13,402 nucleotides of DNA from a virus. The DNA is taken from positions 1 through 13,402 of IMG/VR virus record IMGVR_UViG_3300045988_056069; one strand, given 5' to 3'. Positions 1 through 13,402 of the stretch are shown piece after piece. A model generated the notes under the pieces. The model made no database searches. It was not told where the DNA came from and saw only the letters and a program-made list of their open reading frames with translations. Within the stretch, counting starts at the first letter, position 1, and every line of letters starts with the position of its first letter. The position numbers and the translations under genes were made by a program.

Positions 1-117
1 TAGATTAACCACCACTGGCGGACATTTGTCTTTCCCCCACGGACACATTTGTGCGCACAACACGGACACAATTTGTCCGTGGTAGGCGGACAGGGTGTGC
101 TTTAACGTGCTAAAGTG
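1..117. repeat. Left inverted terminal repeat (1-53 perfect; degenerate ungapped similarity to about 117)
   Basis: Hand reverse-complementing 13286-13402 gives tagattaaccaccactggcggacatttgtctttcccccacggacacatttgtg, identical to 1-53. Positions 54-117 match at roughly 40 of 64 positions without gaps. CGGACA-type motifs fall at the same offsets at both ends (20-24, 41-45, 64-68, 88-92). Confidence 0.95.
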
Positions 118-129
118 GAGGTATATTAT

Positions 130-159
130 TTGCTTATGTGTACTATTAGAATATATAAT
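130..159 (+). promoter_or_regulatory. Candidate sigma-70/sigmaA-type early promoter P1
   Basis: TTGCTT (130-135), an 18-nt spacer, then TATAAT (154-159). It sits in the AT-rich non-coding leader between the ITR and the first ORF. Prediction rests on sequence match only. Confidence 0.5.
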
Positions 160-170
160 ACTCAAAGTTA

Positions 171-199
171 TTGCTTTTGGGTAATTTATGTGATAATAT
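171..199 (+). promoter_or_regulatory. Candidate early promoter P2 with extended -10
   Basis: TTGCTT (171-176), a 17-nt spacer, then TGaTAATAT (191-199; TGn plus TAATAT). It lies 41 bp downstream of P1 and shares the same -35 hexamer. GATAATAT occurs twice (192-199 and 203-210), 11 bp apart. Confidence 0.55.
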
Positions 200-229
200 A
201 CAGATAATATTAGGTGGGAGGATCATGCA

Positions 230-382
230 ATGAAAGCTATTGTCGGCGTTTGGAGATCTGACCCTTGCAAAATTCCGCAATTATATGAGTTCAAAAGTTG
301 GGGCGAGGCCCTTGCATTCTGCAAGCATGAGAATTTTACAATTATGTATCATTTATCATCTTTTATTAAGGAGGAGAACTAA
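230..382 (+). CDS. Hypothetical early protein, 50 aa (below the ORF-track cutoff)
   Basis: ATG 230 is preceded by GGGAGG (216-221) with an 8-nt spacer. Stop TAA 380-382 directly abuts the next ATG at 383. Hand translation: MKAIVGVWRSDPCKIPQLYEFKSWGEALAFCKHENFTIMYHLSSFIKEEN. No family recognised. Confidence 0.5.
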   Translation: MKAIVGVWRSDPCKIPQLYEFKSWGEALAFCKHENFTIMYHLSSFIKEEN

Positions 383-559
383 ATGCGCTACCGTTTGATC
401 TACTACAAGAACGGCGAACATCTTTCTTGCTGGTCGAATGATTATAGCTGGATTCTTGAGCGCTATATCCGTTTCCATAACTGCGGCTACGATGTTGAAA
501 TTTGGGAATATAATGAGCAGGGATCACACCTGTTGGAAAGGAGATTATACAATGGTTAA
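383..559 (+). CDS. Hypothetical early protein, 58 aa (below the ORF-track cutoff)
   Basis: ATG 383 is preceded by AAGGAGG (368-374) with an 8-nt spacer. Stop TAA 557-559 overlaps the next start (ATG 552). Hand translation: MRYRLIYYKNGEHLSCWSNDYSWILERYIRFHNCGYDVEIWEYNEQGSHLLERRLYNG. No family recognised. Confidence 0.55.
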   Translation: MRYRLIYYKNGEHLSCWSNDYSWILERYIRFHNCGYDVEIWEYNEQGSHLLERRLYNG

Positions 560-749
560 TCTGTTACGAAAAGAAAAGGCGAAGCGCTATATCAATGAAC
601 TTTATGATAAGGTGCAGTATTGGCTTAACCGTGAGGGATGGGGTAGCGAAGTCTATCGGCGTAGTCTCGCAAGATATACTACTGCAAAGATCATGTATGC
701 AATTCTAACTGGTGAAGAATATTCCGGAGGATTACTTAATGAGCGGTAA
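552..749 (+). CDS. Hypothetical early protein, 65 aa (shortened from track ORF 438..749)
   Basis: In-frame ATG 552 has AAGGAG (538-543) with an 8-nt spacer. The track start at 438 has no purine-rich SD and would overlap the well-supported 383..559 ORF. The protein starts MVNLLRKEKAKRYINELYDK. No family recognised. Confidence 0.55.
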   Translation: MVNLLRKEKAKRYINELYDKVQYWLNREGWGSEVYRRSLARYTTAKIMYAILTGEEYSGGLLNER

Positions 750-942
750 TAGATGGCTGGTGACAGTGCATTACAAATATCGGCCCAAGACCACATATCT
801 TTTTTCTGATTTGCACGTTGCGCTACAATGTATCGCAATTGCCAAGCGCAAAAAGCCAGGTCTCCGTATCAATCTTATACGAAAGGAGTTGAGTAGAGAA
901 CAATGCGAGGCCGTTTTAAGAACCGGGCAACGACCCATTTGA
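739..942 (+). CDS. Hypothetical early protein, 67 aa (shortened from track ORF 712..942)
   Basis: In-frame ATG 739 has GGAGG (726-730) with an 8-nt spacer. It overlaps the upstream gene by 11 nt and the downstream RHH gene by 40 nt. The protein starts MSGNRWLVTVHYKYRPK. No family recognised. Confidence 0.5.
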   Translation: MSGNRWLVTVHYKYRPKTTYLFSDLHVALQCIAIAKRKKPGLRINLIRKELSREQCEAVLRTGQRPI

Positions 943-1100: not shown

Positions 1101-1716
1101 CCCAAAAGACACCCCGGAACTGTACACACTGGACGCAATCCGACACGCTGACGTATGGACACCTGAAACAATCAAGCGAGAATACCAGAGACTAAGATCA
1201 ATCGCAGTGAAGCGCTTAAAGCGCATGGAAGAAAGCGAAATCGGCAGAGCAAGCAAGACATACTATTATAACAAGGACAAGTATAAACCTGCTTCTGAAC
1301 TGAAACCATACGAGCAGAAAATCCTATTGGCAGACCTTGCAAAGATGATGCAAGCCAAGACCGGCACACTCACAGGCATTAAGCGCTATCGCAAAGAAGC
1401 AATCAAGACTTTCCACGAACATGGCTACGAATACGTTAACGAACAAAATTTTAATGATATAGGCGAATTCTTCCGGTATTGGAAAGCGTCTAATCTGCGT
1501 GGCTATGGTAGTCTTGTAGCAATGGACGTATACGAGAAAATCAAAAACTCAGAAGCATTTGAACGAGCAACGCAGAAAGTCAATAAATCAGCCGAAATTT
1601 TCCGGGCGTTCCAAGCGTGGCAAGCGGAGCGAGATGCACCATTTGAACGCAAGTCGAATGTTGTTGAACGATCTTCCGGTGAGCTATTGCAGGCGTTAGA
1701 TGAATTTCTATGGTAA
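1054..1716 (+). CDS. Candidate terminal (genome-linked priming) protein, 220 aa
   Basis: Position is the main evidence. The gene lies immediately upstream of the protein-primed PolB and is translationally coupled to it (ATGGTAA overlap at 1710-1716), as in phi29 genes 3 and 2. The product is highly charged, K/R/E-rich and predicted helical. The segment EYQRLRSIAVKRLKR loosely recalls the N-terminal basic region of phi29 TP, from memory only. AAGGAG lies at 1038-1043 with a 10-nt spacer. The CDS itself is confident; the function is inferred. Confidence 0.5.
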   Translation: MKFYRTADPATGEVIDPKDTPELYTLDAIRHADVWTPETIKREYQRLRSIAVKRLKRMEESEIGRASKTYYYNKDKYKPASELKPYEQKILLADLAKMMQAKTGTLTGIKRYRKEAIKTFHEHGYEYVNEQNFNDIGEFFRYWKASNLRGYGSLVAMDVYEKIKNSEAFERATQKVNKSAEIFRAFQAWQAERDAPFERKSNVVERSSGELLQALDEFLW

Positions 1717-3734
1717 TCAAGCCGTCAGAATTTCCCCTTGCATGGCTTGAGCAAATACCGGAAGTAAAACGGAAGAAAGGCAACCAACGCACAAAGAAGC
1801 GCCGGAAATATAAAGACCTTATAACAGCGTTTGACATTGAGACAACCAGACTTGCAGATATTGAAAACTCTATCATGTACATCTGGCAGTGGCAATTTGG
1901 AAACGCCTACACGGTTGTTGGGAGAACATGGGATGAATTTACACAATTTCAAAAGAAGTTGCAGAACGTTCTTGATGACACTTTTCTGGTTGTTTTTGTT
2001 CACAATCTTTCCTATGAATTCCAGTTTCTAAGAGGTATCTACCTCTTTGAGCCGGAAGAAGTTTTCGCCGTCCGATCTCGTAAAGTTTTGAAATGTGATA
2101 TGCACAACTGTTTTGAATTCCGATGCAGTTACCTGCACAGCAACATGAACTTAGACACATATACTAAGAAAATGGGCGTACAGCATAAGAAGCTGACAGG
2201 AACATTTGACTATGACAAAGTACGCTATCCATGGACAGAACTGACCGAACAGGAATTAGCTTATTGCATACATGATGTGCAAGGCTTAACCGAAGCAATT
2301 CAAATTGAAATGGAGCATGACGGAGATAACCTGTATACATTTCCGCTAACTTCAACTGGCTATGTCCGCCGGGATGCCAAGAAAGCAATGTCGGAAGTGT
2401 CTTACAATTTCGTCAAAGGTCAGTTACCAGACTATGAGATATACAAAATGCTTAGGGAAGCGTTCCGGGGAGGTAACACCCATGCAAATAGATACTATGC
2501 AAATTACACCTTGCACAACGTTCACAGCGCAGACCGATCCAGCAGTTACCCGGATGTAATGTGCAACTGCAAATTCCCTGTCAGCGAATTTTACCGGCTG
2601 GGCGATGTACCATTTGACGAAGTTATCAAGATATTAGGAAAGCGTCAAAAAGCCTGCATTATGCGAGTAGCAATCACAGGCGCACACCTGCAAAGGGTTG
2701 ATTGGGGATGCCCCTATCTATCATTAGCAAAGTGCCGACACGTTGAAAACGCACTGCTTGATAATGGTAGAATTGTATCCGCTGACTATCTGGAAACCAC
2801 CATAACAGACATTGACTTGAAAATTTTACTAAGTGAGTACGCATGGACGGATATGAAAATTTACGATGTAGCAACCGCCCGTTATGGATACTTGCCTAAG
2901 CCGCTAATAAAAACGATCTGCCAATACTACCACTACAAGACAGAGTTAAAGAACGTTGACGGGCAAGAATTGCTATATATGAAATCAAAGAACAAGCTAA
3001 ACTCGCTTTATGGAATGTGTGCACAAGACCCTGTAAAGCAGTCGATCCTATTTATAGATAATGACTTTAAAGAACAGAACGAGGACGAAGCCGGTTTACT
3101 GTTAGCATATAACCGAAAGGCGTTCCTTGCATATCAGTGGGGCGTGTGGGTGACAGCATGGGCAAGATATAGACTTGAGGAGGGTATCAGGCTTGCCCAC
3201 GGTGATCCAGATGATCCCAATGCACCGCAATTTGTCTATTGCGATACCGATAGCGTTAAATATTTAGGTGAAATCAATCTGGACAAATTTAACCGGGAAC
3301 GCATTAAAGACAGCCGCAACAGCGGAGCATACGCCACTGATTCGGCAGGGATTACACACTACATGGGCGTATACGAGCAAGAGCATGATATGTGCGAATT
3401 TCGGACAATGGGCGCAAAAAAGTATGTTTACCGTGAAACACCGGATAGCAAACTGATCTGCACCATTGCCGGAGTTGAGAAAAAGAAAGGGGGTGAAGAA
3501 CTTGAAGCGCACGGAGGAATTACAGCCTTTCACGAGGGATTTACCTTTGTCAAAGCCGGAGGACTTGAAGCAATTTATAACGATCTGCCCACATACATCG
3601 CAACAGAGTATGAAGCAGGGGGACAGACCTGTCAAATTACGGCTAATGTCTGCCTACGGCCAAGCACTTATACATTAGGACTGACAGCCGATTATAAGCG
3701 GCTATTGACAGAAATCAGGTATGAATATGAATGA
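1710..3734 (+). CDS. Family B DNA polymerase, protein-primed type (phi29 gp2-like)
   Basis: The 674-aa product carries all the diagnostic motifs. ExoI is FDIETT (nt 1830-1847). The ExoII-like motif is HNLSYE (2001-2018). ExoIII is YCIHD. Also present are FRGGNTH, motif A DRSSSYP, motif B KNKLNSLYG (2988-3014), motif C YCDTDS (3237-3254) and a KKY-containing GAKKYVY. Its location in an ITR-bounded linear genome next to a TP candidate fits this call. Confidence 0.95.
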   Translation: MVIKPSEFPLAWLEQIPEVKRKKGNQRTKKRRKYKDLITAFDIETTRLADIENSIMYIWQWQFGNAYTVVGRTWDEFTQFQKKLQNVLDDTFLVVFVHNLSYEFQFLRGIYLFEPEEVFAVRSRKVLKCDMHNCFEFRCSYLHSNMNLDTYTKKMGVQHKKLTGTFDYDKVRYPWTELTEQELAYCIHDVQGLTEAIQIEMEHDGDNLYTFPLTSTGYVRRDAKKAMSEVSYNFVKGQLPDYEIYKMLREAFRGGNTHANRYYANYTLHNVHSADRSSSYPDVMCNCKFPVSEFYRLGDVPFDEVIKILGKRQKACIMRVAITGAHLQRVDWGCPYLSLAKCRHVENALLDNGRIVSADYLETTITDIDLKILLSEYAWTDMKIYDVATARYGYLPKPLIKTICQYYHYKTELKNVDGQELLYMKSKNKLNSLYGMCAQDPVKQSILFIDNDFKEQNEDEAGLLLAYNRKAFLAYQWGVWVTAWARYRLEEGIRLAHGDPDDPNAPQFVYCDTDSVKYLGEINLDKFNRERIKDSRNSGAYATDSAGITHYMGVYEQEHDMCEFRTMGAKKYVYRETPDSKLICTIAGVEKKKGGEELEAHGGITAFHEGFTFVKAGGLEAIYNDLPTYIATEYEAGGQTCQITANVCLRPSTYTLGLTADYKRLLTEIRYEYE

Positions 3735-3888
3735 CGGACACGATATGTGTGTGGAATGTTTAAAATCTGCTGACCGTTTTCATGAAGATGTTGATTGCAT
3801 GAATTGCGGTTGTAAAGGTTGCCCGTGGCTTCACAACTGTTCCGGGCAATGTTATACAAGTAACCAACGGGAACACCGTGGTAAATAA
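3721..3888 (+). CDS. Cys-rich micro-protein (up to 55 aa), possible zinc-binding protein
   Basis: Not in the ORF track. It fills the otherwise empty 174-nt gap after the polymerase. Hand translation: MNMNDGHDMCVECLKSADRFHEDVDCMNCGCKGCPWLHNCSGQCYTSNQREHRGK. It has 8 Cys arranged CxxC-x12-CxxCxCxxC-x5-CxxxC. The SD is weak; ATG 3727 (AGG at 3717-3719, 7-nt spacer) or ATG 3745 are alternative starts. Confidence 0.4.
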   Translation: MNMNDGHDMCVECLKSADRFHEDVDCMNCGCKGCPWLHNCSGQCYTSNQREHRGK

Positions 3889-3908
3889 AATTTAAAGGAG
3901 AGCAAACT

Positions 3909-4241
3909 ATGACTATCATTAAGACCAGCAAGGAACTGACCAAGCGTGAATCCTACAAGTTGACCCTTGACCCGGCTATTAAGAAGATGAAAGATTTCAT
4001 CGGCGTTCAGATTGACGTTACCGCCTACTGCATTTACAGTGACGTGAACAAGGACGGTAAGGAAGTTGAAGTGTTGTCGATCATGGACAAGGACGGCGGC
4101 GTGTGCGCCACCAACAGCGACACCTTTAAGCGTGATTTCATGAACATTGCCGAACTGATGGACGGCGAGGATTACACCATTGAGGTTATCAGCGGACAGA
4201 GCAAGGCAGGCCGGGAATTTATTACCTGCACTCTGGTGTAA
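3909..4241 (+). CDS. Hypothetical protein, 110 aa; possible replication accessory or ssDNA-binding protein (position-based guess)
   Basis: A strong SD, AAGGAG (3895-3900), lies 8 nt upstream of the ATG. The gene sits between the polymerase and the packaging ATPase. The product is small and predicted beta-rich (IGVQIDVTAYCIYSDV, EVEVLSIMDKDGGVCATN, YTIEVISGQSKAGREFITCTLV), compatible with an OB-like fold. No motif I can name with certainty. Confidence 0.35.
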   Translation: MTIIKTSKELTKRESYKLTLDPAIKKMKDFIGVQIDVTAYCIYSDVNKDGKEVEVLSIMDKDGGVCATNSDTFKRDFMNIAELMDGEDYTIEVISGQSKAGREFITCTLV

Positions 4242-4244
4242 CTC

Positions 4245-5282
4245 ATGAGCCGCATATATCTTGATAGCGGCTATTTAGATATTCACGGATTGCTTGAGCG
4301 GGGCTTGCCCTTTAACTTTGCGGTTGGAGGGCGAGCCACCGGCAAAACTTACGGCAGTCTGTTAGAATCTATCCAAGTTCCAAGAACTTTCTTGCTGATC
4401 CGGCGAACACAGGCACAGGCCGACATTATCACAAAACCGGAGTTTTCCCCATTCAAGCGAATATGCGAGGATCAAAACCTCTTAATAACGTCCTCGCCTG
4501 TTACGAAGTACAACAGCGCCTTTTATTTTTATAAGGTAGACGAGGATGGCAAACAGATACAGCAAGGAAAGCCTTTGGGGTATTCAGCCGCATTATCAAC
4601 ATTTTCCAATATCCGAGGGTTTGACGCTTCTGATGTTGACCTGATGATCTTTGATGAATTTATCCCGGAACGGCACGAGCGCCCAATTAAAAACGAGTTT
4701 GAAGCGCTTATGAACTGCTATGAAACCGTCAACAGAAATAGGGAGCTTCAAGGAAAAAAGCCGGTACAGTTGCTATGTCTCGCCAACGCTAACGATGTAG
4801 CTAACCCGGTGTTTGTCGGTTTCAATCTGGTAAAACGAGCAAATGAGATGTTAGCCAAGGGCAAAGAAGTCTATCAAGACAACAAGCGAGGTATATGTCT
4901 CTATATGCTTCAACACTCGCCCATTTCGGACGAAAAGCGGAACACCGTACTATACAAGGCTACGGAGGGCACACGCTTTTCTGAAATGGCACTGGAAAAC
5001 AAATTTGCATTTAACGATTTCGGAAACATTCGGAGCAGACCTATAAAAGAATTTATCCCTATTTGCGCAATCTCTAAAATCTGCGTGTATCGGCACAAGT
5101 CAGATGGAACCTATTACGTTTCCTTGCACAAGTCCGGCAGTCCCCCATACTACACCGACAGTGAAGCAGATATACAGCGCTTCAAACGCCTGTATGGCTG
5201 GCTATGGGATGCGTACATGAAAAATAAGGTAACTTTTGAAGAATATTTAGCGGAACACTACTTGACAAAGTATCTGAAATAA
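4245..5282 (+). CDS. DNA encapsidation (packaging) ATPase, phi29 gp16-like
   Basis: The 345-aa product has Walker A FAVGGRATGKTY and Walker B DLMIFDEF. It also carries FLLIRRT, ETVNRNRE, LLCLANANDVANPVFVGFNL and FSEMALENKF. These parallel remembered phi29 gp16 segments (VIGARGIGKSY, FIYVRRY, IVFDEFI, DTVFRNRE, CICLSNAVSVVNPYFLFFNL, YGEMSLDNQF). Confidence 0.92.
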   Translation: MSRIYLDSGYLDIHGLLERGLPFNFAVGGRATGKTYGSLLESIQVPRTFLLIRRTQAQADIITKPEFSPFKRICEDQNLLITSSPVTKYNSAFYFYKVDEDGKQIQQGKPLGYSAALSTFSNIRGFDASDVDLMIFDEFIPERHERPIKNEFEALMNCYETVNRNRELQGKKPVQLLCLANANDVANPVFVGFNLVKRANEMLAKGKEVYQDNKRGICLYMLQHSPISDEKRNTVLYKATEGTRFSEMALENKFAFNDFGNIRSRPIKEFIPICAISKICVYRHKSDGTYYVSLHKSGSPPYYTDSEADIQRFKRLYGWLWDAYMKNKVTFEEYLAEHYLTKYLK

Positions 5283-5296
5283 GCTACTCTTATATC

Positions 5297-5369
5297 AGAG
5301 TAAGGGTTGCATAAAGTCACGGCCGGAAGCTGATGCAAGCGGTTGACTACCGCAAGAAACCCTTACTCT
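5297..5369 (+). ncRNA. Candidate structured RNA element (three-way junction); function unknown (pRNA-like, processing site or terminator-like)
   Basis: A perfect 12-bp outer helix pairs AGAGTAAGGGTT (5297-5308) with AACCCTTACTCT (5358-5369). It encloses hairpin P2 (GCAT 5309-5312 with ATGC 5333-5336) and hairpin P3 (GCGG 5339-5342 with CCGC 5350-5353, 7-nt loop TTGACTA). The P3 loop TGACT (5344-5348) is complementary to AGTCA (5315-5319) in the P2 apical region. The element lies in the largest non-coding gap of the genome (5283-5399). Folded by eye only. Confidence 0.4.
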
Positions 5370-5399
5370 AAATTATTATCTGGCAGAAAGGAAATGTAA

Positions 5400-5624
5400 A
5401 TGGATGTCGCAACCGTAACACAGCTTGTTAGCAATTTGGGTTTCCCTATCGTCTGTGTAGGCGTTATGTTCTGGATGCAGAACAAGGAGAGGGAGAGCCA
5501 CGCCGCCGAAAGTGAGCGTTGGACGGAAGTCGTGAAAGAGAACACCGAAGCACTGCGAGATTTGAAAGAGGTTGTATCACTGCTAAAGGAGCGTGTCGGC
5601 CATGTCAGCGAAGAAAGAGAATGA
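5400..5624 (+). CDS. Holin, BhlA/UviB-like
   Basis: The 74-aa product has a single N-terminal TM helix (LVSNLGFPIVCVGVMFWM). This is followed by NKERES and a charged, coiled-coil-like tail, matching the BhlA holin-like layout. SD AAAGGA lies at 5387-5392. The gene sits immediately upstream of, and overlaps, the putative lysin gene. Confidence 0.7.
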   Translation: MDVATVTQLVSNLGFPIVCVGVMFWMQNKERESHAAESERWTEVVKENTEALRDLKEVVSLLKERVGHVSEERE

Positions 5625-6258
5625 GGTAGCCGTTTCAATTCCATTGGATGATATTGAAAGAATTGAAATCTACCTGAACAAACCAAATCCACGAACACGA
5701 AAGCGGAAATCTCTATCCGCCATTATCAGCGCAACCGGCGCAGACTATGCAATCAACGGCACCTTATATAATATGAGGAACGGCAACCCTGTTTGTCCTC
5801 TGCGCCGGAACGGTGTAACGCTGTACCATGGGAAAGACCTGTATCGTGGTTATCTCTGGGACAACTACAACGCAAACAGCTTTCATTTTGATTTAGTCCC
5901 TAATGAAGCATGGGAAAATTTCATTGCTTGCAGTCATATCGTGATGGACGGAAAAGCAATCAAGAAGCCGATCTACAACGTTGCACAAGGCGGCAGGCGT
6001 GGGAGAACGGCTATCGGAACAAAATACGTCAACGGACAGAAGCGGCTTTGTCTGTATGCGTCCAAGGACAGAACACGAGCACGGAAAACGCCGGAACAGC
6101 TTGCACAGCTACTTCAAAGCTACGGTTGGGAAGATGCTGTAATGCTTGACTGCGGCGGTAGTTCACAGGTATACCTTGACCACGAGCGGCGGCAGGTATG
6201 TTCAACCCGCAACGTGGCGCACGTTATTTTGATTTATTTAAAGAAAGGAAGAAAATAA
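5602..6258 (+). CDS. Phosphodiester glycosidase (NAGPA/DUF2233)-family protein, putative cell-envelope hydrolase or endolysin
   Basis: The 218-aa product from ATG 5602 has AAGGAG (5586-5591) with a 10-nt spacer. The track GTG at 5593 is only 1 nt from the SD. Family hallmarks are ADYAINGTLYNMRNGNPVCPLRRNGV near the N-terminus, RRGRTAIG, and the C-terminal TPEQLAQLLQSYGWEDAVMLDCGGSSQ. Its position after the holin suggests a lysis role. Confidence 0.6.
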   Translation: MSAKKENEVAVSIPLDDIERIEIYLNKPNPRTRKRKSLSAIISATGADYAINGTLYNMRNGNPVCPLRRNGVTLYHGKDLYRGYLWDNYNANSFHFDLVPNEAWENFIACSHIVMDGKAIKKPIYNVAQGGRRGRTAIGTKYVNGQKRLCLYASKDRTRARKTPEQLAQLLQSYGWEDAVMLDCGGSSQVYLDHERRQVCSTRNVAHVILIYLKKGRK

Positions 6259-6259
6259 C

Positions 6260-6583
6260 ATGGAAACTATGAAAGCTAATGAAATCATTCAGCAGGGTCT
6301 TGCACACGGCGAAAGCTATGAGCTTATCAACGAGCGTCTGAAGCAGGCCGGGTGTGATTTCCACCTTGAAAAGAGCCGCCCGGAGGGCTGGACGGAACAG
6401 GAAATGAAAGAGGGTTTCCAGCAGGGCGAGCCTGCCCCCGAAGTAAAGCGACTGCATGATTATATGCGGTTTAATAAGGAGAACGCCGGTAAAACGGTTC
6501 GGGTTGAAGTTCCCGAGGGTATCTATGATATGACGTGGAATGAGAACGGCAATCCTATTTCCGCTGTAAGGGTGGTGAAATAA
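6260..6583 (+). CDS. Hypothetical protein, 107 aa
   Basis: SD AAAGGAAG lies upstream and the gene is tightly packed between the lysin gene and the scaffold-like gene. No family recognised. It is possibly head-associated, by position only. Confidence 0.5.
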   Translation: METMKANEIIQQGLAHGESYELINERLKQAGCDFHLEKSRPEGWTEQEMKEGFQQGEPAPEVKRLHDYMRFNKENAGKTVRVEVPEGIYDMTWNENGNPISAVRVVK

Positions 6584-6913: not shown

Positions 6914-6916
6914 AAT

Positions 6917-8131
6917 ATGGCAAATGTTAATGACATGACCATTTTCCAGGCAGGCACTATTCTACAATCCCTTGTCCAGCAGGCGACCGGCCAGGCGGTT
7001 ATTACCGCTTCCACTCCCGGCGAGTTTGTCAGCGTGGCACAGGTTGCGCTGAAAACTGGCTATGACCCCATCTTGAATGCAATGTCCCAGATGTGGGGCC
7101 GTACTATTTTCAGTATCCGCCCCTATGAGCGCAAGTTCTCCGGCTTGGAAATGAACATGAGCCGCTGGGGTAACGCCGTTCGGAAGTTGTCTATTGCAGA
7201 TAAGCCCATTGAGGACGATGCCCGCTTCATCTGGCCTGTTGGCTACGACGCTACCAAGACCGGTAACCCGCTGGGCAACGGTCAGAGCGTGGATATGTAC
7301 GCCTTGAACAAGCCCGACATTCTTCAGGTCAATTTCTATGGTCAGGCCGTTTATGAAAACAGCTATACCATTTTCGAGGATCAGCTGGACACCGCTTTCA
7401 CCGGCCCGGACGAATTTATGAGGTTTAATGCGATGGTTTCCGGCAACCGCTCCGACAAGCTTGAGCAGTACCGCGAGAATATCGCGCGCGGCATTCTGGC
7501 AAACTACATTGGTTCTATCCTTGCCGAAAAGCAGGCTACGCGCGTTGTACATCTGCTGACAGAGTACAATGCCGAAACCGGTTTGACGCTGACCGCACAG
7601 GCTATCTATCAGCCGGACAACTTCCCCAGCTTTATGCAGTGGGTATACGCGAGAGTTGCAACCATCTCCCGAATGATGACCGAGCGATCCGAGATGTTCC
7701 AGACGGTTATCAACGAGAAGCACGTTATGCGCCACACTCCCGCCGCCCGTCAGAAAGTCTATCTATATGCCAAAGCTATGGATCAGTTTGATGCTATGGT
7801 CAAAGCAAACAGTTTCCACGACAACTATCTCAAGTATACGGACTACGAGGGCGTTAACTTCTGGCAGTCCATCGAAACGCCTGACAGTATCAGTTTGAAG
7901 CCCGTGTACACGTCCACCACCGGCACCGCCACCACCGGCGAGGCCGTGGAACAGGCAGGAATCTTCGGCGTTATCTTTGACGAGGAAGCGCTGGGTTATG
8001 CCCAGATTCGCGCAACCAGCGATATCACCCCGAAGAACGCCAAGGGCCGCTATTGGAACACGTTTGACCATGTTAACTTCCGGGCTATCATGGACATGAG
8101 TGAAAAGGGCGTTCTGCTGTTGCTGGATTAA
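6917..8131 (+). CDS. Major capsid protein, phi29 gp8-like (HK97 fold expected)
   Basis: The 404-aa gene has a strong SD (AAAGGAG) and follows the scaffold-like gene. The C-terminal NAKGRYWNTFDHV resembles remembered phi29 gp8 NPRGLYWNYYYHV. Its size and the synteny scaffold-MCP-tail knob fit this call. A terminator-like hairpin follows, which is typical of highly expressed capsid genes. Confidence 0.8.
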   Translation: MANVNDMTIFQAGTILQSLVQQATGQAVITASTPGEFVSVAQVALKTGYDPILNAMSQMWGRTIFSIRPYERKFSGLEMNMSRWGNAVRKLSIADKPIEDDARFIWPVGYDATKTGNPLGNGQSVDMYALNKPDILQVNFYGQAVYENSYTIFEDQLDTAFTGPDEFMRFNAMVSGNRSDKLEQYRENIARGILANYIGSILAEKQATRVVHLLTEYNAETGLTLTAQAIYQPDNFPSFMQWVYARVATISRMMTERSEMFQTVINEKHVMRHTPAARQKVYLYAKAMDQFDAMVKANSFHDNYLKYTDYEGVNFWQSIETPDSISLKPVYTSTTGTATTGEAVEQAGIFGVIFDEEALGYAQIRATSDITPKNAKGRYWNTFDHVNFRAIMDMSEKGVLLLLD

Positions 8132-8138
8132 CACACGG

Positions 8139-8176
8139 AGGGGTGGGGCACTTTCCTCATGTCCTGCCCCTATTTT
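8139..8176 (+). terminator. Candidate (probably leaky) intrinsic terminator after the capsid gene
   Basis: A 12-bp stem pairs 8139-8150 (AGGGGTGGGGCA) with 8160-8171 (TGTCCTGCCCCT). It includes 3 G-U pairs and has a 9-nt loop, and is followed by ATTTT (8172-8176). Downstream genes must still be expressed, so read-through is expected. Confidence 0.5.
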
Positions 8177-8190
8177 AAAGGAGGTCAATT

Positions 8191-9567
8191 ATGCTTAGTG
8201 TAACGCTGTACGAGTTCAAGAAGCGTGAGAACAGCACAAAAAGACCGGACAGCACCGCCACGCAGAGAACGCACAACGCAGTCTTGAAGATGCCTACAAG
8301 CCTGTTAAGGCCGGAAATTACTTTTGACTTTGGCCTAAAGGGAAATCCCTCTTATTATAATTATGCGTATATTTCCGATTTGGGAAACCGCTACTATTTT
8401 ATCAGGGATTGGACGGTTGGAGATGGCCACTTGTGGACGGCGCACTTGGAGGTTGACGTTCTGGCGAGTTGGAAAAACAGTATCGGAAACAGTACACAAT
8501 ACGTACAGCGCAGTTCAAAGACCTTTGACGGCGGCGTGATTGATGTACTATATCCGACTAAACAACCGGCAAGTGTGAATGTCTACGAAAAAGCAACACC
8601 GTGGAAAACGTCCCTCGCAACTGGTACTTACGTTCTTGGGATTGTAAACTCCGAGGACGGCGGCGTGGGAGCGGCACACTATTACGCACTCACGCAGACG
8701 GAAATGAACAGCTTCCTATCTTATATGTTGGGGAACGTTGACTATCTGGGGAGCATTACGGAGATTTCAAGCGAGCTTTTGAAAGTGCTTTTCAATCCCA
8801 TGCAGTATATTGTGTCTTGCGTCTGGTATCCGTTCGCCGTGGAGGGAACAGCCGTTGAATCTATTCCTATGGGTTGGTGGTCAATTCCTGTCAGCGGTAA
8901 AAAAGTAGTTGCCACGATCCACTATGAAACGGTAGAATTTACAATCCCTAAACACCCTCAGAGCACCAGAGGCGCATACTTGAATCAAGCGCCCTATACA
9001 CAGGCGAGCCTATTCTTTCCCGGTGTGGGGTGGATTGCCTTGAATCCGTCTCTGTTGACTGTAAGCACCTTAACTGCACAATGCGCTGTTGATATGGTTG
9101 CAAATCAGGCACGGCTTGCGCTTAGTTCTGGGGAAGGCGTTTTTAGCCTGACTTTTGCGGAGTTGGGTGTCCCTATCCAGTTGGCACAACTCGCAAGTAA
9201 CACACTTCAGGCAATTGGTGAAGTTGCAAATTCTGTTGTAAGTCTCTTTTCCGGCAAGGGCAGTATTGCAAGCACGATCTTTTCCACCATTGGAGCGGCT
9301 ACGGATATGGCGTTTCCTGATGTGTCAAAAATGAATACAAACGGTTCGCTTGTGTCTCTGGCCTATTCCTGTAAGTTGCGCATGATCTTTTATCTGCTTG
9401 TGGACGAGGATAACGAGGATTTAGGCAGACCCCTATGCAAGAAGAAAGTGCTTTCCTCTATTCCCGGTTATCAACTGATTGAAAACGCTGATCTTGCAAT
9501 CGCCGGAACGAGTGAAGAAAACAGGATGGTAAAGGGATACCTTGAAGCCGGATATTTCTATGAGTAG
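8191..9567 (+). CDS. Tail knob / distal tail tube protein, phi29 gp9-like
   Basis: The 458-aa gene has SD AAAGGAGG. The N-terminal block NYAYISDLGNRYYFIRDWTVGDGHLWTAHLEVDVLASWKNSI parallels remembered phi29 gp9 SYIMFQNADYGNKWFYAFVTELEF...VHFEIDVLQTWMFDI. The position after the MCP gene matches phi29. A Gly/Ala/Ser-rich hydrophobic segment spans residues 326-375. Confidence 0.65.
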   Translation: MLSVTLYEFKKRENSTKRPDSTATQRTHNAVLKMPTSLLRPEITFDFGLKGNPSYYNYAYISDLGNRYYFIRDWTVGDGHLWTAHLEVDVLASWKNSIGNSTQYVQRSSKTFDGGVIDVLYPTKQPASVNVYEKATPWKTSLATGTYVLGIVNSEDGGVGAAHYYALTQTEMNSFLSYMLGNVDYLGSITEISSELLKVLFNPMQYIVSCVWYPFAVEGTAVESIPMGWWSIPVSGKKVVATIHYETVEFTIPKHPQSTRGAYLNQAPYTQASLFFPGVGWIALNPSLLTVSTLTAQCAVDMVANQARLALSSGEGVFSLTFAELGVPIQLAQLASNTLQAIGEVANSVVSLFSGKGSIASTIFSTIGAATDMAFPDVSKMNTNGSLVSLAYSCKLRMIFYLLVDEDNEDLGRPLCKKKVLSSIPGYQLIENADLAIAGTSEENRMVKGYLEAGYFYE

Positions 9568-9577
9568 GTGAGTGCTG

Positions 9578-10117
9578 ATGGCATGGATTACAGGAAACCG
9601 CTATCTGTCGATGGACGAAATGAAGAACAACGCCGACATTATGCATTATTTCTTCAAGTCTAACAGATGGACGGATAACGCTATCTCCGCCATGTTTGGC
9701 AATATGCAGACAGAAAGCACACTGAATCCGGGAATATGGGAAAACCTTGACCCGTTTGTGGGCGGCTATGGGTTGGTACAGTGGACACCGTACACCAATT
9801 ATTCCGAATGGGCCGGTACTAACTGGCAAGACAACGGGCAGAAAGAGATGGAGCGGATCATATACGAGTTGGAGAACCGCTTGCAGTGGATCAGTACCAG
9901 CCTTTACCCTATGACGTTCCGGGAGTTCTCGCAATCTGATAAGCCGCCTGCCTATCTTGCGCAAGCGTTCCTATATAACTATGAGCGCCCAACAGTGAAG
10001 CCGCAACCGGCACGGAGCAAGCAAGCGGAATACTGGTATCAGTACATCACAGGGCATGAGCCGCCGATCTCACAGCTACCGATCTGGCTACTATTTAAAA
10101 TGAAAGAAAGGAGATGA
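9578..10117 (+). CDS. Tail-associated lysozyme (Phage_lysozyme2-type peptidoglycan hydrolase)
   Basis: The motifs FGNMQTESTLNPG (candidate catalytic Glu) and GGYGLVQWTP are typical of the phage tail lysozyme family. ATG 9578 (AGGTGA 9566-9571, 6-nt spacer) is preferred over the track GTG at 9572. This gives 179 aa. Confidence 0.8.
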   Translation: MAWITGNRYLSMDEMKNNADIMHYFFKSNRWTDNAISAMFGNMQTESTLNPGIWENLDPFVGGYGLVQWTPYTNYSEWAGTNWQDNGQKEMERIIYELENRLQWISTSLYPMTFREFSQSDKPPAYLAQAFLYNYERPTVKPQPARSKQAEYWYQYITGHEPPISQLPIWLLFKMKERR

Positions 10118-10122
10118 TCCCA

Positions 10123-11064
10123 ATGATTGGTAACGGTATCCCGGCAAACTATGATTATATCAACGCGCAAAACGCCGCTGTAAGTCCGTCCACCGTCCAT
10201 TGCAGAAACACAGCACTTTCCCAATACTTCCGGCGCTACCTGCTTCAAAAGGCTATGTCGCTTTTCAAGTGGAAGTTGCCGGAGCATTGGAGCAAGAATT
10301 ATTTCCTGTATGTGCTGTACTGCTGGGGCTATCTCGCAGTTGTCAACACAAACAGTTTTGGTGTTATTCCGCAGGGGTGCACCCTGACCGGCTATAACGT
10401 GTTCTACCAGCCGACTAACGCAATTATCACAAATCCCCTCTTGCGTGGTATCCTTGAGCCAAGAATCGGAAGCCAATGCACGATTATCCGTTTACAGCCG
10501 GACTATGGCGGTATTATGGATATTGTGGGGTACTATGGCGATATGTTAGCGCTGTGCGCTGAATCTGTCGGAATGAACCTTATGAACACACACCTTGCGT
10601 ATGTGTTTGCGGCTGGTAACAAGACCGCCGCAGAGAGCTTCAAAAAGATGTATGACCGTGTAGCGTCCGGCGAAGTCTGCACAGTGATTGACAAGAACCT
10701 GTTCCGGGATGACGGAAGTAAAGCGTGGGAAGCGTTTGAACAGAACTTGAAGCAGGTTTATATCAGTTCCGACATTCTCAGCGATATGCGCAAAATTGAA
10801 GCAATGTTTGACACGGATATTGGCATTCCCAACGCTAACACGGACAAGCGTGAACGGCTGGTAACTGACGAAGTGAACGCTAATAACGTTGAGACACAGA
10901 GCAAATGCGCTATGTGGCTGGAAGAATTGCAGGAGAGTATCAAGGCAACAAACGATATGTTTGGCTTAGATCTTTCTGTTGAGTGGCGATTCCCTGACGC
11001 TTATGAAGGGGGTGTGAACAATGTCGGCAACAGTAAGCCTGTTGGGCCTGAAACGGTTGAATGA
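10123..11064 (+). CDS. Head-tail connector (portal / upper collar), phi29 gp10-like
   Basis: The segment IGIPNANTDKRERLVTDEVNANNVETQS...FGLDLSVEWRF closely parallels remembered phi29 gp10 [29 protein letters not shown]...YGLNVKVKFRY. The size (313 aa) is close to gp10 (309 aa). ATG 10123 (AAGGAG 10108-10113, 9-nt spacer) is preferred over the track ATG 10114, which has zero spacer. Confidence 0.9.
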   Translation: MIGNGIPANYDYINAQNAAVSPSTVHCRNTALSQYFRRYLLQKAMSLFKWKLPEHWSKNYFLYVLYCWGYLAVVNTNSFGVIPQGCTLTGYNVFYQPTNAIITNPLLRGILEPRIGSQCTIIRLQPDYGGIMDIVGYYGDMLALCAESVGMNLMNTHLAYVFAAGNKTAAESFKKMYDRVASGEVCTVIDKNLFRDDGSKAWEAFEQNLKQVYISSDILSDMRKIEAMFDTDIGIPNANTDKRERLVTDEVNANNVETQSKCAMWLEELQESIKATNDMFGLDLSVEWRFPDAYEGGVNNVGNSKPVGPETVE

Positions 11065-11713
11065 CGGCATTCTGGGCGAGTTGGTTGTCCCTGATGGCGT
11101 GGACGTGGAACTTGTCAAGGATAACCTGCTTGCAGAAACTGCGGAACTTGAAGTAATCTATCCTGATGCTATTTTCATGCAGGCCATGATTGGCAGGTGG
11201 AGCGCTAAAGAGCTTCCGATCTGGGAACGGCTTTACAAAACAACGCTGTTAGAGTATAATCCTATTGAAAACTATGACCGCATGGAAGAATGGACGGAAG
11301 CAGAGGACACGAAGAAAAACACGGAAGCCGATGCAACCGGAACCAGTAAGACGGATACGGACGGCACGAGCACCAGAGAGAGCAACACGGACGGCGTTAT
11401 CAACGATCAGAAGTATGTGAGCGCATATAATGAAGTTGAGTTCACGCCAACGGAGCGAGACAACAACACGCAGAATGAAAAGAACAACAGCGAACAAAAG
11501 GACGTGGGGACGGTATCCGTTAAAACGTCTGCGGAGAATACAACGGACGAAACCGGAAACAGAAACCTGTTGCGAAAAGGACGTGCGCACGGTAATATAG
11601 GTGTGACTACTTCCCAACAGATGATTGAAGCGGAGCGTGAAGTTGCTTTGTATAATATCATTGACGTGATTATAACGAGCTTCAAAAACCGCTTCTGTCT
11701 GCAAGTCTATTAA
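11021..11713 (+). CDS. Probable lower collar / proximal tail tube protein (phi29 gp11 position)
   Basis: The 230-aa gene lies directly after the connector gene and overlaps it by 44 nt. Conserved-looking ends are WERLYKTTLLEYNPIENYDR and HGNIGVTTSQQMIEAEREV. They flank a T/N/D/E-rich low-complexity middle. The functional call rests mainly on synteny. Confidence 0.5.
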   Translation: MSATVSLLGLKRLNDGILGELVVPDGVDVELVKDNLLAETAELEVIYPDAIFMQAMIGRWSAKELPIWERLYKTTLLEYNPIENYDRMEEWTEAEDTKKNTEADATGTSKTDTDGTSTRESNTDGVINDQKYVSAYNEVEFTPTERDNNTQNEKNNSEQKDVGTVSVKTSAENTTDETGNRNLLRKGRAHGNIGVTTSQQMIEAEREVALYNIIDVIITSFKNRFCLQVY

Positions 11714-11725
11714 GGAGGTATTAAC

Positions 11726-12355
11726 ATGGGATTATTTGAGCAGTTTCCCTATTCCAATTTACACGAATTAAATCTTGACTGGATTTTGCAGAAGATCAAA
11801 GAACTTGACGAGAAAGTCAACAGCATTGAGGACAGAATCCTAAAGGAAGCCAACGCATACACAGATCAGCAGATTGCACTGTTACGGCGTGAGTTTAACG
11901 AGCTTGAAAACGAATTTATTGTGTTCAAGTCTGACATTAACGCACAGTTTGCGGCTTACACCGCAAAACAGGACAAGGCTTTTGCTGACTATCAGAAACT
12001 TGTCAATGCACAGATTGCCCTGCTTGAGCAAGAAATCAGAGATGCACGAGCGGAACTCAAAACCATGTTGCGGCAAGCTAACGCATACACAGATGCAAGT
12101 ATGGCTATGTTGCTGTTGCAGTTGCCGGACATTATCACAAAGAACATTAAGAATGCAAAGGTGTATAACCTGCTGACTGGTAAGTATGTGACCATTCAGG
12201 CAATGTTTGATTTCCTCTGCTTGTTCCATGCGCCGGGTGCACTTACTTGCGGCGATATGTACGCAAAAAATAACACCTGCACACAGATTATCAACTACAA
12301 TAAGACCTGTCAGGAATTTATCACTGACGCAAAGAACTTTGTTGTTCAGCACTAA
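11726..12355 (+). CDS. Coiled-coil tail fibre / appendage protein, 209 aa
   Basis: A strong SD, TAAGGAGGTATT, lies upstream. The N-terminus (FPYSNLHELNLDWILQKIKEL) is followed by a long heptad-like helical region containing a duplicated ANAYTD motif. The C-terminal part is Cys-containing and looks globular. The location in the distal tail module fits a fibre role. Confidence 0.5.
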   Translation: MGLFEQFPYSNLHELNLDWILQKIKELDEKVNSIEDRILKEANAYTDQQIALLRREFNELENEFIVFKSDINAQFAAYTAKQDKAFADYQKLVNAQIALLEQEIRDARAELKTMLRQANAYTDASMAMLLLQLPDIITKNIKNAKVYNLLTGKYVTIQAMFDFLCLFHAPGALTCGDMYAKNNTCTQIINYNKTCQEFITDAKNFVVQH

Positions 12356-12373
12356 ATAAGGAGGTATTTTATA

Positions 12374-13237
12374 ATGAGTACTCAGACTGAACACTTGAAA
12401 CTTGACCTACGTGAAGCCGCCGACATTTTCAACCCCTTGAGCACTAACGCTAACTTTGAAAGTCTGGATAACATTATCTATGAAATCCAGACTAAGGGCG
12501 GTGTGCCTACTTACACCACTACGGCAAGCGCTAACCTGTTGAAGCTGTCGCAGAATCCCACGCCTAACGTGACCGTGTTCAAGTTCGTTGCGGCTGGTGA
12601 CGCTAACACATGGAGTTATCAGGAAACTGTTAACGACATTGTGGCACTGGACGGCAGTAAGAAAACTGTCAAGGGCGGCGAAATGTATGTCGCATGGGTG
12701 AATGCGGCTAATGCTATGGTTGTCATTGCATGGCCTGATGTGGTCAATGCTCAGACCTTTGACGGCAAAGGCCCTGCTGAATGGGCAAGCAAAGCACAGT
12801 TGGATGCAGTCAACCAGACAGCGGCCAATGCTACCCAAACGGCACAGGCGGCGGCTACGGTGGCGAATAATGCTAATAAACGTGGATTGCTAAGAAAACG
12901 AATTTATAGCGCATCGTTACCTTACCCAACGTCTATTGAGCCGCAAACCATTAAAATTGGAAAAATTACTGAAACCCCACTATTTGCCGTTATTACGTGC
13001 GGTAGCGGTGCAAGTGCAATCTTTATTGTTGGAAGTGGCGCAGGAGGAGGTACAAGTCTGCAATCGGACGCAAATGGTACTACACGTGGAACAAGACGGT
13101 TGTATCTTAATAGCTCTGTTGTTGACGGATATAGTTTACAGGTAGGAGCAGGCACAAGACTTGACGGAACAACAGATAATGAACTTTGTATTCCTCTTTA
13201 TGTTGACATTTTCTATATGGGAACTTCTGAAGAATAA
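12374..13237 (+). CDS. Tail fibre / receptor-binding protein, 287 aa
   Basis: A strong SD, TAAGGAGGTATT, lies upstream. The N-terminal TEHLKLDLREAADIFNPLSTNANFESLDNI resembles the common Firmicute-phage fibre anchor pattern (L.L.KP......N.N.D.ID). A DGKGPAEWASKAQLD motif is followed by an A/Q/T/N-rich helical neck. The C-terminal beta-rich knob has lower GC. This is the last gene before the terminator. Confidence 0.6.
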   Translation: MSTQTEHLKLDLREAADIFNPLSTNANFESLDNIIYEIQTKGGVPTYTTTASANLLKLSQNPTPNVTVFKFVAAGDANTWSYQETVNDIVALDGSKKTVKGGEMYVAWVNAANAMVVIAWPDVVNAQTFDGKGPAEWASKAQLDAVNQTAANATQTAQAAATVANNANKRGLLRKRIYSASLPYPTSIEPQTIKIGKITETPLFAVITCGSGASAIFIVGSGAGGGTSLQSDANGTTRGTRRLYLNSSVVDGYSLQVGAGTRLDGTTDNELCIPLYVDIFYMGTSEE

Positions 13238-13245
13238 TATATATT

Positions 13246-13280
13246 GGCCCGTGTTGAAATATACACGGGCCTATTTATAT
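13246..13280 (+). terminator. Intrinsic terminator at the end of the operon
   Basis: A perfect 9-bp stem pairs GGCCCGTGT (13246-13254) with ACACGGGCC (13263-13271), with an 8-nt loop. It is followed by T-rich TATTTATAT. It starts 8 nt after the last stop codon. Confidence 0.8.
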
Positions 13281-13285
13281 ACTGT

Positions 13286-13402
13286 CACTTTAATGTACTA
13301 AAGTGCTCCCTGTCCACGCCACACGTACAACTTGTATCCACCGTGCGCACACAAATGTGTCCGTGGGGGAAAGACAAATGTCCGCCAGTGGTGGTTAATC
13401 TA
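13286..13402. repeat. Right inverted terminal repeat (13350-13402 perfect; degenerate similarity from about 13286)
   Basis: This is the reverse complement of 1-53 (perfect) and of 54-117 (imperfect). It includes a perfect 7-bp inverted repeat, CACTTTA-N6-TAAAGTG, at 13286-13305. Confidence 0.95.

Follow-up and report, generated by a model that had tools for sequence, protein, structure and literature searches.

A conserved RNA with the topology of phi29 packaging RNA at the head of the predicted late operon in small phi29-like gut phages

Introduction

The IMG/VR virus record IMGVR_UViG_3300045988_056069, analyzed here over its full length of 13,402 nucleotides (nt) and referred to below as the window, is predicted from its sequence to be the essentially complete genome of a podophage that is bounded by inverted terminal repeats (ITRs), encodes a family B DNA polymerase (PolB), and is transcribed in one direction. 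Between its genes for the packaging ATPase and the holin lies a 76-nt three-way-junction RNA (positions 5295 to 5370) that resembles the packaging RNA (pRNA) of phage phi29. According to reviews, pRNA is found in phi29 and related Bacillus phages only (PMC11476376, PMC5066667), no pRNA for other phi29-like families was described in the literature that we searched, and how and when RNA joined the DNA-packaging motor is an open question (bioRxiv 10.1101/2020.07.06.188573). What is new here is an RNA family with phi29 pRNA topology heading a late operon; the lineage, the size, and the architecture of the genome are not new.

Results

Every large open reading frame (ORF) of the window lies on the + strand, on which all coordinates below are given unless stated otherwise. 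A 21-gene model covers 95.3% of the 13,402 bases (GC content, 46.6%) and includes a Shine-Dalgarno-like motif at 17 of the 21 genes; that all genes share one strand, as an earlier note on this DNA had claimed, holds for 21 of 21. The only sizeable internal noncoding gap, 5283 to 5399, houses the RNA. It folds at -34.4 kcal/mol (z = -2.9), and none of 200 shuffles folded as well. On one side of the gap is the gene for a gp16-type packaging ATPase of 345 amino acids (aa) (4245 to 5282; PF05894 Podovirus_Gp16, E = 3.8e-20; phi29 gp16, PDB 7jqq, E = 2.3e-16), and on the other is the gene for a 74-aa holin with one N-terminal hydrophobic segment (5400 to 5624). The earlier note called this holin “BhlA-type,” a label without support in Pfam; the sole match was to PHROG 4898, “holin” (phrog_4898, E = 7e-7). 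The same note missed the structured RNA in the gap.

The RNA is closed by helix P1 (5297 to 5308 with 5358 to 5369). Within this helix, P2 (5309 to 5312 with 5333 to 5336) is followed on its 5′ side by a bulge, AAAGUCA (5313 to 5319), and by the P3/E hairpin (5320 to 5323 with 5329 to 5332), which is capped by the E loop CGGAA (5324 to 5328). A second hairpin, D (5339 to 5343 with 5349 to 5353), presents the loop UGACU (5344 to 5348), to which AGUCA of the bulge (5315 to 5319) is complementary.

Comparison with related loci, which are given L numbers here, argues that this structure is maintained. When 17 distinct hand-trimmed sequences were aligned with MAFFT, 95.4% of cells were paired, versus 32 to 43% with slid partners, and 25 of 31 pairs changed on both sides, including 3 of the 5 bulge-loop pairs. 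RNAalifold independently arrived at this three-way junction, with compensatory changes in 21 of its 24 pairs. A covariance model, R1, found exactly one copy in each of the 47 loci that cover the region, and it detected both the contig L076, which had been binned into a metagenome-assembled genome (MAG), and a sister clade that was absent from its training (E about 1e-8). The alignment derived from the model, with 29 distinct sequences, gave 96.4% paired cells, compensatory changes in 26 of 32 pairs, changes on both sides in 3 of 6 bulge-loop pairs, and 97% paired cells in the bulge-loop contact; being fitted to the model, this alignment leans toward the structure, a bias from which the MAFFT result is free. 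Run without filters, R1 reached three further and much more distant gut phages (MT836263, 2.6e-7; MT836115, 1.8e-4; MT836587, 0.044), whose copies sit just upstream of the genes for the scaffold and the major capsid protein (MCP).

The bulge and the D loop keep their pairing with differing sequences, namely, AGUCA/UGACU, GGUCA/UGACC, GACCA/UGGUC, UGCAC/GUGCA, and UGUGC/GCACA, along with GCUAUA/UGUAGC in the sister clade and AAUCA/UGAUU in MT836115. The E loop CGGAA, in contrast, is invariant in 47 of 47 copies while the stems around it covary freely, which suggests a site of protein or tertiary contact. Taken at the level of sequence, the RNA is a strongly supported, widespread, and previously undescribed family whose members have a conserved fold and a promoter of their own. 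Other readings of the gap were set aside: a hammerhead-like interpretation of CUGAUG, since the motif is not conserved in relatives (GCUGGUG); a plain terminator, since no U-run follows the stem in the window; and the Rfam matches on the window to snoRNA and miRNA families (E = 0.3 to 5), which are chance.

The likeness to phi29 pRNA is one of element order. In the Rfam structure of that RNA (RF00044), the A helix leads into a C helix that has a bulge of 9 nt on its 5′ side and ends in a 4-bp E hairpin; then come a D hairpin, whose loop has 5 nt, and the A′ strand. The window RNA has the identical order from closing helix to D hairpin. In both RNAs the bulge is complementary to the D loop and varies between relatives yet stays complementary, and both carrier phages encode a gp16-type ATPase and a gp10-type connector. 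The two RNAs differ in length (117 to 174 nt for phi29 pRNA versus 76 nt), in the A helix (about 24 bp versus 12 to 15 bp here), in the C helix (9 bp versus 4 to 6 bp here), and in the junction nucleotides. They also differ in placement: pRNA lies at the left end of the phi29 genome behind an early promoter, whereas the window RNA heads the late operon on the same strand as all genes and, in the window's clade, has no terminator of its own.

We formalized this topology as a structural descriptor that asks for a closing helix, a helix bearing a short hairpin and, on its 5′ side, a bulge of 6 to 10 nt, and a further hairpin in whose loop at least 4 nt are complementary to the bulge. The descriptor had a single match in the window (5297 to 5369, score 30) and a single match in phi29, the true pRNA (score 31, AACC/GGUU), while 100 dinucleotide shuffles of the window gave 0.79 matches per genome with a maximum score of 28. 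In phi29, intermolecular pairing of the CE loop with the D loop builds the pRNA ring on the prohead (PMC5066667). The proteins with which pRNA works are an ATPase and a connector, and the window encodes both, of the gp16 and gp10 types, respectively; this was counted in favor of a comparable role. We regard a pRNA-like function in packaging as the likeliest reading, though on the sequence evidence it is close to evenly balanced, if anything marginally short of that.

Several observations weigh against a packaging role. RF00044, which scores 145 bits on phi29, gave no match on the window (E up to 1) or on its 181-nt segment from 5240 to 5420 (E up to 10), and neither R1 nor a second covariance model, R2, detects phi29 pRNA; with no covariance-model link in either direction, the likeness is topological and could be convergent. 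The bulge-loop pairing, as read from sequence, is compatible with a contact between molecules or within one. In the window's clade no U-run follows P1 (4 of 8 tail positions are T) and the ribosome-binding site (RBS) of the holin gene lies about 20 nt downstream; here the late mRNA would, at least to begin with, carry the RNA as its 5′ leader. Moreover, a conserved and covarying segment downstream of P1, termed anti-E and described below, points to a conformational switch acting in cis. In favor of a pRNA, P1 of the sister clade is followed by UUUUGUAU (6 of 8 T), and a discrete RNA of about 78 nt is plausible there.

These observations bear on the main competing explanation, in which the late (holin-lysin-morphogenesis) operon has the RNA as its cis-acting 5′ leader and the bulge-loop contact is an intramolecular pseudoknot compacting the three-way junction. 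Such a leader would control how the first late gene is translated, how stable the mRNA is, or how much read-through occurs, and it could take the form of a processive antiterminator similar to put, a switch sensing a protein or ligand via E and anti-E, or a 5′ stabilizer. Its position behind a promoter fits. The predicted promoter for the RNA and the late operon (5262 to 5290) consists of TTGACA (5262 to 5267, inside the end of the ATPase gene), a 17-nt spacer, and TACTCT (5285 to 5290), and in 44 of 44 distinct contexts a TTGAC[A/G/T] -35 box is accompanied by a -10-like box that ends 3 to 8 nt before the RNA, so that the RNA begins at the transcription start. Always directly downstream are the late or morphogenesis genes, a placement that holds even in the sister clade, where the ATPase gene is on the other strand, 8 kb away. 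On the other hand, neither a terminator/antiterminator nor an RBS-sequestering platform is evident, in the sister clade the U-run is preceded by P1 itself, an arrangement that departs from common riboswitch logic, and no Rfam cis-regulatory family matches. The put RNAs of HK022 consist of two adjacent stem-loops just downstream of a promoter, act in cis on RNA polymerase, and are not known to have a closing helix or loop-bulge pairing. The architecture here is unlike put in having a closed three-way junction, a closing helix of 12 to 15 bp, and a bulge-loop pairing.

Anti-E is a further point in favor of a leader. In the window it is UCUGGC (5379 to 5384), complementary to GCCGGA (5322 to 5327) and just upstream of the holin RBS; more generally, it lies 7 to 11 nt after P1 and is complementary to the 5′ strand and loop of the E hairpin. 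The segment is found in L001, L047, L082, and most clade A loci, and its sequence follows that of the E hairpin both inside each clade and from one clade to the next (AGCCGGA/UCCGGCU in the window's clade, GGCCGGA/UCCGGCC in L029, ACGGACGGA/UCCGUCCGU in the sister clade, GCGGACGGA/UCCGUCCGC in L047, and 10 bp in MT836115). Matched with its own E region it forms 6 to 9 bp, versus 4 bp in cross-clade combinations. Anti-E is absent in L034, L035/36, L049, and L079, all of which have the full junction and the bulge-loop pairing, and it is thus accessory rather than core. In read-through transcripts anti-E would be expected to compete with the E hairpin, which could equally serve to inactivate mRNA-attached copies of a trans-acting RNA. 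On a purely cis-acting reading, the element-for-element pRNA topology beside the two protein partners of pRNA would be a coincidence. Overall, we consider a purely cis-acting leader possible but doubtful, and roles other than packaging or leader take the remaining probability.

The ends of the window bear on whether it represents a whole linear genome. Its first and last 53 nt (1 to 53 and 13350 to 13402) are exact reverse complements, in agreement with the earlier note, and the inverted repeat extends imperfectly to about 126 nt (79%), giving a left ITR at 1 to 126 and a right ITR at 13277 to 13402. Each ITR contains four GGA[CT]A/CGGACA motifs with a spacing of approximately 22 nt, about 20, 41, 64, and 88 nt from the end. 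On the left they lie at 19 to 24, 40 to 45, 63 to 68, and 87 to 92, and on the right they are mirrored at equal distances, with spacing that is identical at both ends even beyond the exact 53-nt repeat (spans of 19 to 92 and 13311 to 13384). CGGACA occurs 16 times in the window, versus 5.8 expected and a count that none of 200 shuffles reached, and five of the 16 copies are within the first 92 nt. The motifs are candidate binding sites for a protein that organizes the origin or the terminal region, perhaps the ribbon-helix-helix (RHH) protein described below.

It could be supposed instead that the termini are assembly artifacts, the molecule being circular, circularly permuted, or integrated and the inverted repeat made by the assembler. 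An inverted repeat is collapsed by de Bruijn assemblers, which by itself would make contig ends symmetric, and the window does stop about 4 nt inside what appear to be the true ends. Relatives from IMG/VR and metagenomes start GCGATAGATTAACC... or GTGATAGATTAACC..., and the window starts TAGATTAACC... In the IMG/VR relatives L020, L029, and L032, Illumina adapter sequence directly abuts G[C/T]GATAGATTAACC, the adapter tail (...GTGTGCTCTTCCGATCT) being joined to the terminal G, and in L025 it is joined to a diverged end, GTGTAAAGATAAGCC. These remnants (at the right ends of L020, L032, and L025 and at both ends of L029) are contamination in IMG/VR, yet they mark the exact physical terminus. Adapter ligation needs a free DNA end, and the termini of these four relatives are therefore physical. 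In addition, independent contigs of related phages stop at the same homologous position, no contig runs on into other sequence, and the window encodes a protein-primed-type PolB and neither an integrase nor a terminase nuclease. We consider an artifactual origin of the ends extremely unlikely.

By homology with these relatives, the window is about 4 nt short at each end, with G[C/T]GA as the predicted true outer bases; such symmetric truncation is expected because assemblers collapse the ITR into one path. The earlier note's description of a whole ITR-bounded linear genome stands insofar as the genome is essentially complete, and it needs correcting by those few terminal bases. ITR-bearing relatives measure 13,399 to 13,653 bp and have exact ITRs of 28 to 81 nt. 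By homology with L016, L021, L027, L029, L032, and L060, the 5′ end of the clade is G[C/T]GATAGATT..., in which bases 1 and 3 are both G and base 2 varies. We speculate that, with a G[C/T]G terminus, protein-primed initiation could start at the third template base and then jump back. In Bam35, initiation takes place at position 3 with a jump back. The exact ITR sequence of the window is absent from IMG/VR. A search of metagenome contigs with a degenerate ITR pattern returned mostly chance internal matches, with genuine ends only in L060, L072, and L074.

Behind the left ITR, an AT-rich noncoding region with promoter-like hexamers (100 to 229) is presumed to be the early promoter region. Four small early ORFs follow (230 to 382, 383 to 559, 552 to 749, and 739 to 942) in a region that is variable among relatives, and the first of them had no homologue in any fetched related locus. 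The 65-aa Arc/CopG-like RHH DNA-binding protein (903 to 1100) has a weaker match to RHH_1 (E = 1.3e-5) and matches Arc-like repressor PHROGs. Next is a 220-aa, all-helical candidate terminal protein (1054 to 1716), proposed from its position, as its gene overlaps the start of the PolB gene in the manner of phi29 gene 3. It gave no Pfam or PHROG match and no PDB fold match, BFVD returned uncharacterized proteins only, and hhalign against the phi29 terminal protein gave a probability of 0.25%. No record contained this exact protein, the closest contig being L077, which has no terminus.

The protein-primed-type PolB (1710 to 3734, 674 aa) matches PF03175 DNA_pol_B_2 (E = 7.5e-15, 55 bits versus a cutoff of 25.8) and phrog_1907 (8e-62). 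Between it and the next replication gene lies a Cys-rich 55-aa ORF (3721 to 3888; CVEC...CMNCGCKGCPWLHNCSGQC), which among the fetched relatives occurs in L003 only and is probably a recent accessory insertion. The following 110-aa protein (3909 to 4241) is a putative phi29-type single-stranded DNA-binding protein (SSB), with a match to PF17427 (E = 4.4e-4, 20.9 bits) that is below the cutoff of 25.

Downstream of the holin gene, the endolysin candidate (5602 to 6258, 218 aa) has a NAGPA/phosphodiester-glycosidase domain (Pfam NAGPA, E = 4.9e-14). Its ATG start at 5602 suits the 218-aa homologues better than a GTG at 5593, and both overlap the end of the holin gene. After a 107-aa protein that is variable or absent among relatives (6260 to 6583) comes a 109-aa protein in the scaffold position (6584 to 6913), as for phi29 gene 7. 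Its gene contains an 18-nt tandem repeat in about six copies (6653 to 6787) that encodes PVPQPA six times. The repeat unit and copy number differ among relatives (PAPAPA..., PVPQPA..., PPVTT...), and the contigs L010, L018, L026, L045, and L048 start inside the repeat, which evidently breaks assemblies. The phi29-type MCP (6917 to 8131, 404 aa; PF25622 Phi29_MCP, E = 7.5e-13) is followed by a terminator-like hairpin that was read directly (8145 to 8176; GGGGCA, 14 nt, TGCCCC, then TATTTT) and that the consensus terminator scan missed because of its long loop. This hairpin may raise capsid mRNA relative to that of the tail genes.

The 458-aa protein encoded at 8191 to 9567 had no sequence-level match in Pfam, PHROGs, or PDB. 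An AlphaFold model built with 43 homologues (pLDDT, 81; residues 333 to 382 form a low-confidence loop) matched phi29 gp9, C1 gp12, and the Andhra knob in Foldseek with E values of 1.7e-13 to 9e-9 and a probability of 1.0. The match to 5fb5_A (E = 1.7e-13) had a TM value of 0.55, and 4eo2 and 8egs also matched. By predicted fold, the protein is a tail knob of the gp9/C1 gp12 type. Beyond it are a 181-aa tail lysozyme (9572 to 10117; PF18013 Phage_lysozyme2, E = 1.2e-29) and the 316-aa gp10-type connector, or upper collar (10114 to 11064; PF05352 Phage_connector, E = 1.1e-18; phrog_2038, 2.9e-28). The 230-aa candidate for a lower collar or tail-tube adaptor (11021 to 11713) matches phrog_3225, “adaptor Ad4” (6e-8); against phi29 gp11, hhalign gave E = 6e-4 and a probability of 28% over 35 residues, and the profile gave E = 1.3 against 6qz9. 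Two fibre-position proteins, assigned by position, are encoded at 11726 to 12355 (209 aa, coiled-coil-like) and 12374 to 13237 (287 aa), and after the last gene is a bidirectional terminator-like hairpin of nine pairs, seven of them G-C (13246 to 13271). Sequence searches of PDB gave no meaningful match for the knob, the collar, or either fibre-position protein.

The gene order in the earlier note (ATPase, holin, lysin, scaffold, MCP, knob, lysozyme, connector, collar, fibres) is as we find it. Pfam matches were counted when above the curated cutoff, which was the case for six proteins (PolB, ATPase, lysin, MCP, lysozyme, and connector); the phi29-type ATPase, connector, and capsid and the PolB that the note had recognized are thereby borne out, and the knob is identified by fold only.

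The same note had proposed an undescribed phi29-like lineage, set apart by its single direction, permuted modules, small size, and a gp12 appendage that had been replaced. Among 50,697 deposited phage records, megablast with the whole window gave no match. In IMG/VR, on the other hand, there are 48 related contigs, of which about 35 have the same synteny and a size of 13 to 14 kb (13.3 to 14.1 kb). The best of these, L005 (IMGVR_UViG_3300045988_060846), covers 94% of the window at 89.9% identity, or approximately 84% overall, and L011 and L012 reach about 82 to 83% (a blastn approximation, not VIRIDIC). The rules of thumb of ICTV are about 70% for a genus and 95% for a species. By these values the window is probably a distinct species within a genus-level cluster comprising IMG/VR L002 to L034.

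Further relatives are numerous. The knob, candidate terminal protein, and lysin belong to clusters of 400 to 500 member sequences from public assemblies that are 95 to 97% identical, and tblastn found the human-fecal contig MT835998 (56% identity in both PolB and MCP) and the cultured Amedibacillus phages AD70P2 and AD70P3 (38% in PolB and 31% in MCP). A survey in 2024 clustered more than 2000 phi29-like sequences, including a human-gut cluster of 13.8 kb and 45% GC (PMC11476376). The size proposed as unusually small is thus that of some 35 relatives, with AD70P2 at 12.3 kb, and phi29-like phages of 11 to 12 kb have already been described (e.g., astrithr, 11,569 bp). Nor is a one-strand layout a novelty, since 14 of 15 genes of AD70P2 are on one strand in the same module order. 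As to permuted modules, phi29 has the order 7-8-8.5-9-10-11-12-13-14-15-16; the 16/14/15 block and a gp13-like lysozyme have indeed moved, but the scaffold-MCP-knob-connector-collar-fibre core is colinear with phi29 genes 7-8-9-10-11-12. In favor of a new lineage are the missing megablast match, the missing ITR match, and the modest overall similarity to the best relative, but the relatives, the near-identical proteins in public assemblies, the cultured phage with the same layout, and the survey's coverage of such gut clusters make that proposal very unlikely. The genome itself is probably one further species in an abundant, already sampled clade of 13- to 14-kb gut phages.

In the sister clade (L001, which is MT835998, and L037 to L048), the block of terminal protein, PolB, SSB, and ATPase genes is on the strand opposite the structural genes, and the single-strand layout of the window is therefore one of two arrangements in the wider group. 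The sister-clade layout is convergent, with a shared terminator after the ATPase gene, and the RNA stays with the structural operon and not with the ATPase. Within L002 to L034, the knob occurs as two allele types, about 94 to 98% versus 50 to 59% identical as proteins, in genomes that are otherwise 90 to 99% identical. The fibre genes of relatives keep their N-terminal parts and swap their C-terminal parts, or the second fibre is missing, and early genes are swapped too. Judged from these sequences, the variation in knob and fibres looks like cassette exchange of host-recognition parts.

As to the host, the nearest cultured relative infects Amedibacillus (Bacillota), and in the 2024 survey the suggested hosts of the gut cluster that matches are Bacillota as well (PMC11476376). 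The sole match in 185,579 species genomes (GTDB) was a whole-phage contig in the MAG of “Candidatus Treponema caballi.” This contig, L076 (JAGHRS010000043.1; 13,759 nt), is a complete phage genome of the group with an MCP that is 71% identical and with the RNA present. Its placement in the Treponema MAG is most likely a binning artifact; it is weak evidence of host and conflicts with a Bacillota host. Homologues of the lysin, considered as a clue to the host, were all on phage-sized contigs, and neither they nor the search for the exact candidate terminal protein yielded a usable pointer.

Discussion

In our view, the window is a linear genome, complete but for its outermost bases, from an uncultured phi29-like podophage that also carries a miniature pRNA-like RNA, and we hold this explanation, taken as a whole, about as firmly as we doubt it. 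Replication would be protein primed from the ITR ends by PolB together with the protein encoded just upstream of it. Transcription would run one way, from the early promoter region at the left end and then from the internal promoter in the end of the ATPase gene, whose transcript would open with the 76-nt three-way-junction RNA. Copies of the RNA would link bulge to D loop between molecules and assemble into a ring at the prohead's gp10-type connector, with P1 then docking the gp16-type ATPase, and the RNA would serve as a miniature pRNA in packaging the protein-capped genome. We infer the packaging function of the RNA, as we do the terminal protein and the role of the GGACA motifs; the lack of any detectable homology of the candidate terminal protein to known terminal proteins belongs with the points that weigh against this account. 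The fuller version, in which the RNA is a minimal pRNA ringing the connector and ATPase, RNA motors are widespread and possibly ancestral among gut phi29-like phages, and anti-E silences read-through copies, is tentative, and we place it a little under the halfway mark.

The family is natural and half the size of phi29 pRNA, and the dozens of gut phage genomes in which it is found also encode both proteins with which pRNA works. Should it act in packaging, an RNA-dependent motor would be general to this phage assemblage and not peculiar to phi29 and its Bacillus relatives, and the family would define a minimal conserved core in which the CGGAA loop and the kissing bulge-loop pair are built onto the three-way junction. 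The family would also offer new self-assembling three-way-junction scaffolds for RNA nanotechnology. If it is a cis-acting leader, it would represent a new class of control element for phage late operons. Independently of its function, the adapter-abutted ends supply an exact terminal sequence (5′-G[C/T]G...) for studying the start of priming in this clade.

Comparison with known systems

Among viruses in which a pRNA-like RNA has been reported, the archaeal ampullaviruses are also linear double-stranded DNA viruses that encode a PolB. They are an unrelated lineage, and the comparison draws on a one-sentence mention (bioRxiv 10.1101/2020.07.06.188573).

Phi29 (Salasmaviridae) shares with the window a protein-primed-type PolB, ITRs, and ATPase, connector, capsid, and knob of the gp16, gp10, gp8, and gp9 types. 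Its genome has a length of 19.3 kb, ITRs of 6 nt, and early and late operons that diverge, whereas the window has 13.4 kb, 53-nt ITRs, and a single direction. The lysis genes and the ATPase end the late operon of phi29; in the window, the ATPase, holin, and lysin precede the head genes. Unlike phi29, the window lacks a head fibre, and a gp12-type appendage was not detected in it.

Closer in layout are AD70P2 and AD70P3 (OP172638/9; Guelinviridae in NCBI), two small phi29-like gut phages in culture, whose genes are nearly all on one strand, as in the window. AD70P2, of 12,320 bp, has the order terminal protein-position gene, PolB, ATPase, scaffold-position gene, MCP, knob-position gene, portal, collar-position gene, and fibre, the same as in the window, and both phages share with it the collar C-terminal motif HGNIGVTTSQQM. 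Their GC content is 26.7%, versus 46.6% in the window, and they have neither a lysozyme gene between knob and portal nor a holin-lysin block after the ATPase, both of which the window has. Between its ATPase and scaffold-position genes, AD70P2 has a look-alike junction (L050, 6404 to 6475, minus strand) with the bulge/loop pair UAUC/GAUA, an upstream TTGACA, and a U-rich tail. We do not claim it as a family member: R1 and R2 leave it undetected, its descriptor score of 28 equals that of the best shuffles, and a covariation test is impossible because it has one identical IMG/VR relative only.

The closest counterparts are L005 in IMG/VR and gut contigs in GenBank (MT835998 and MT836263; “Podoviridae sp. 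ct...”), which have in common with the window the gene order, the ITR family, a size of 13.3 to 14.1 kb, and the RNA, at a similarity to the window that is below species level.

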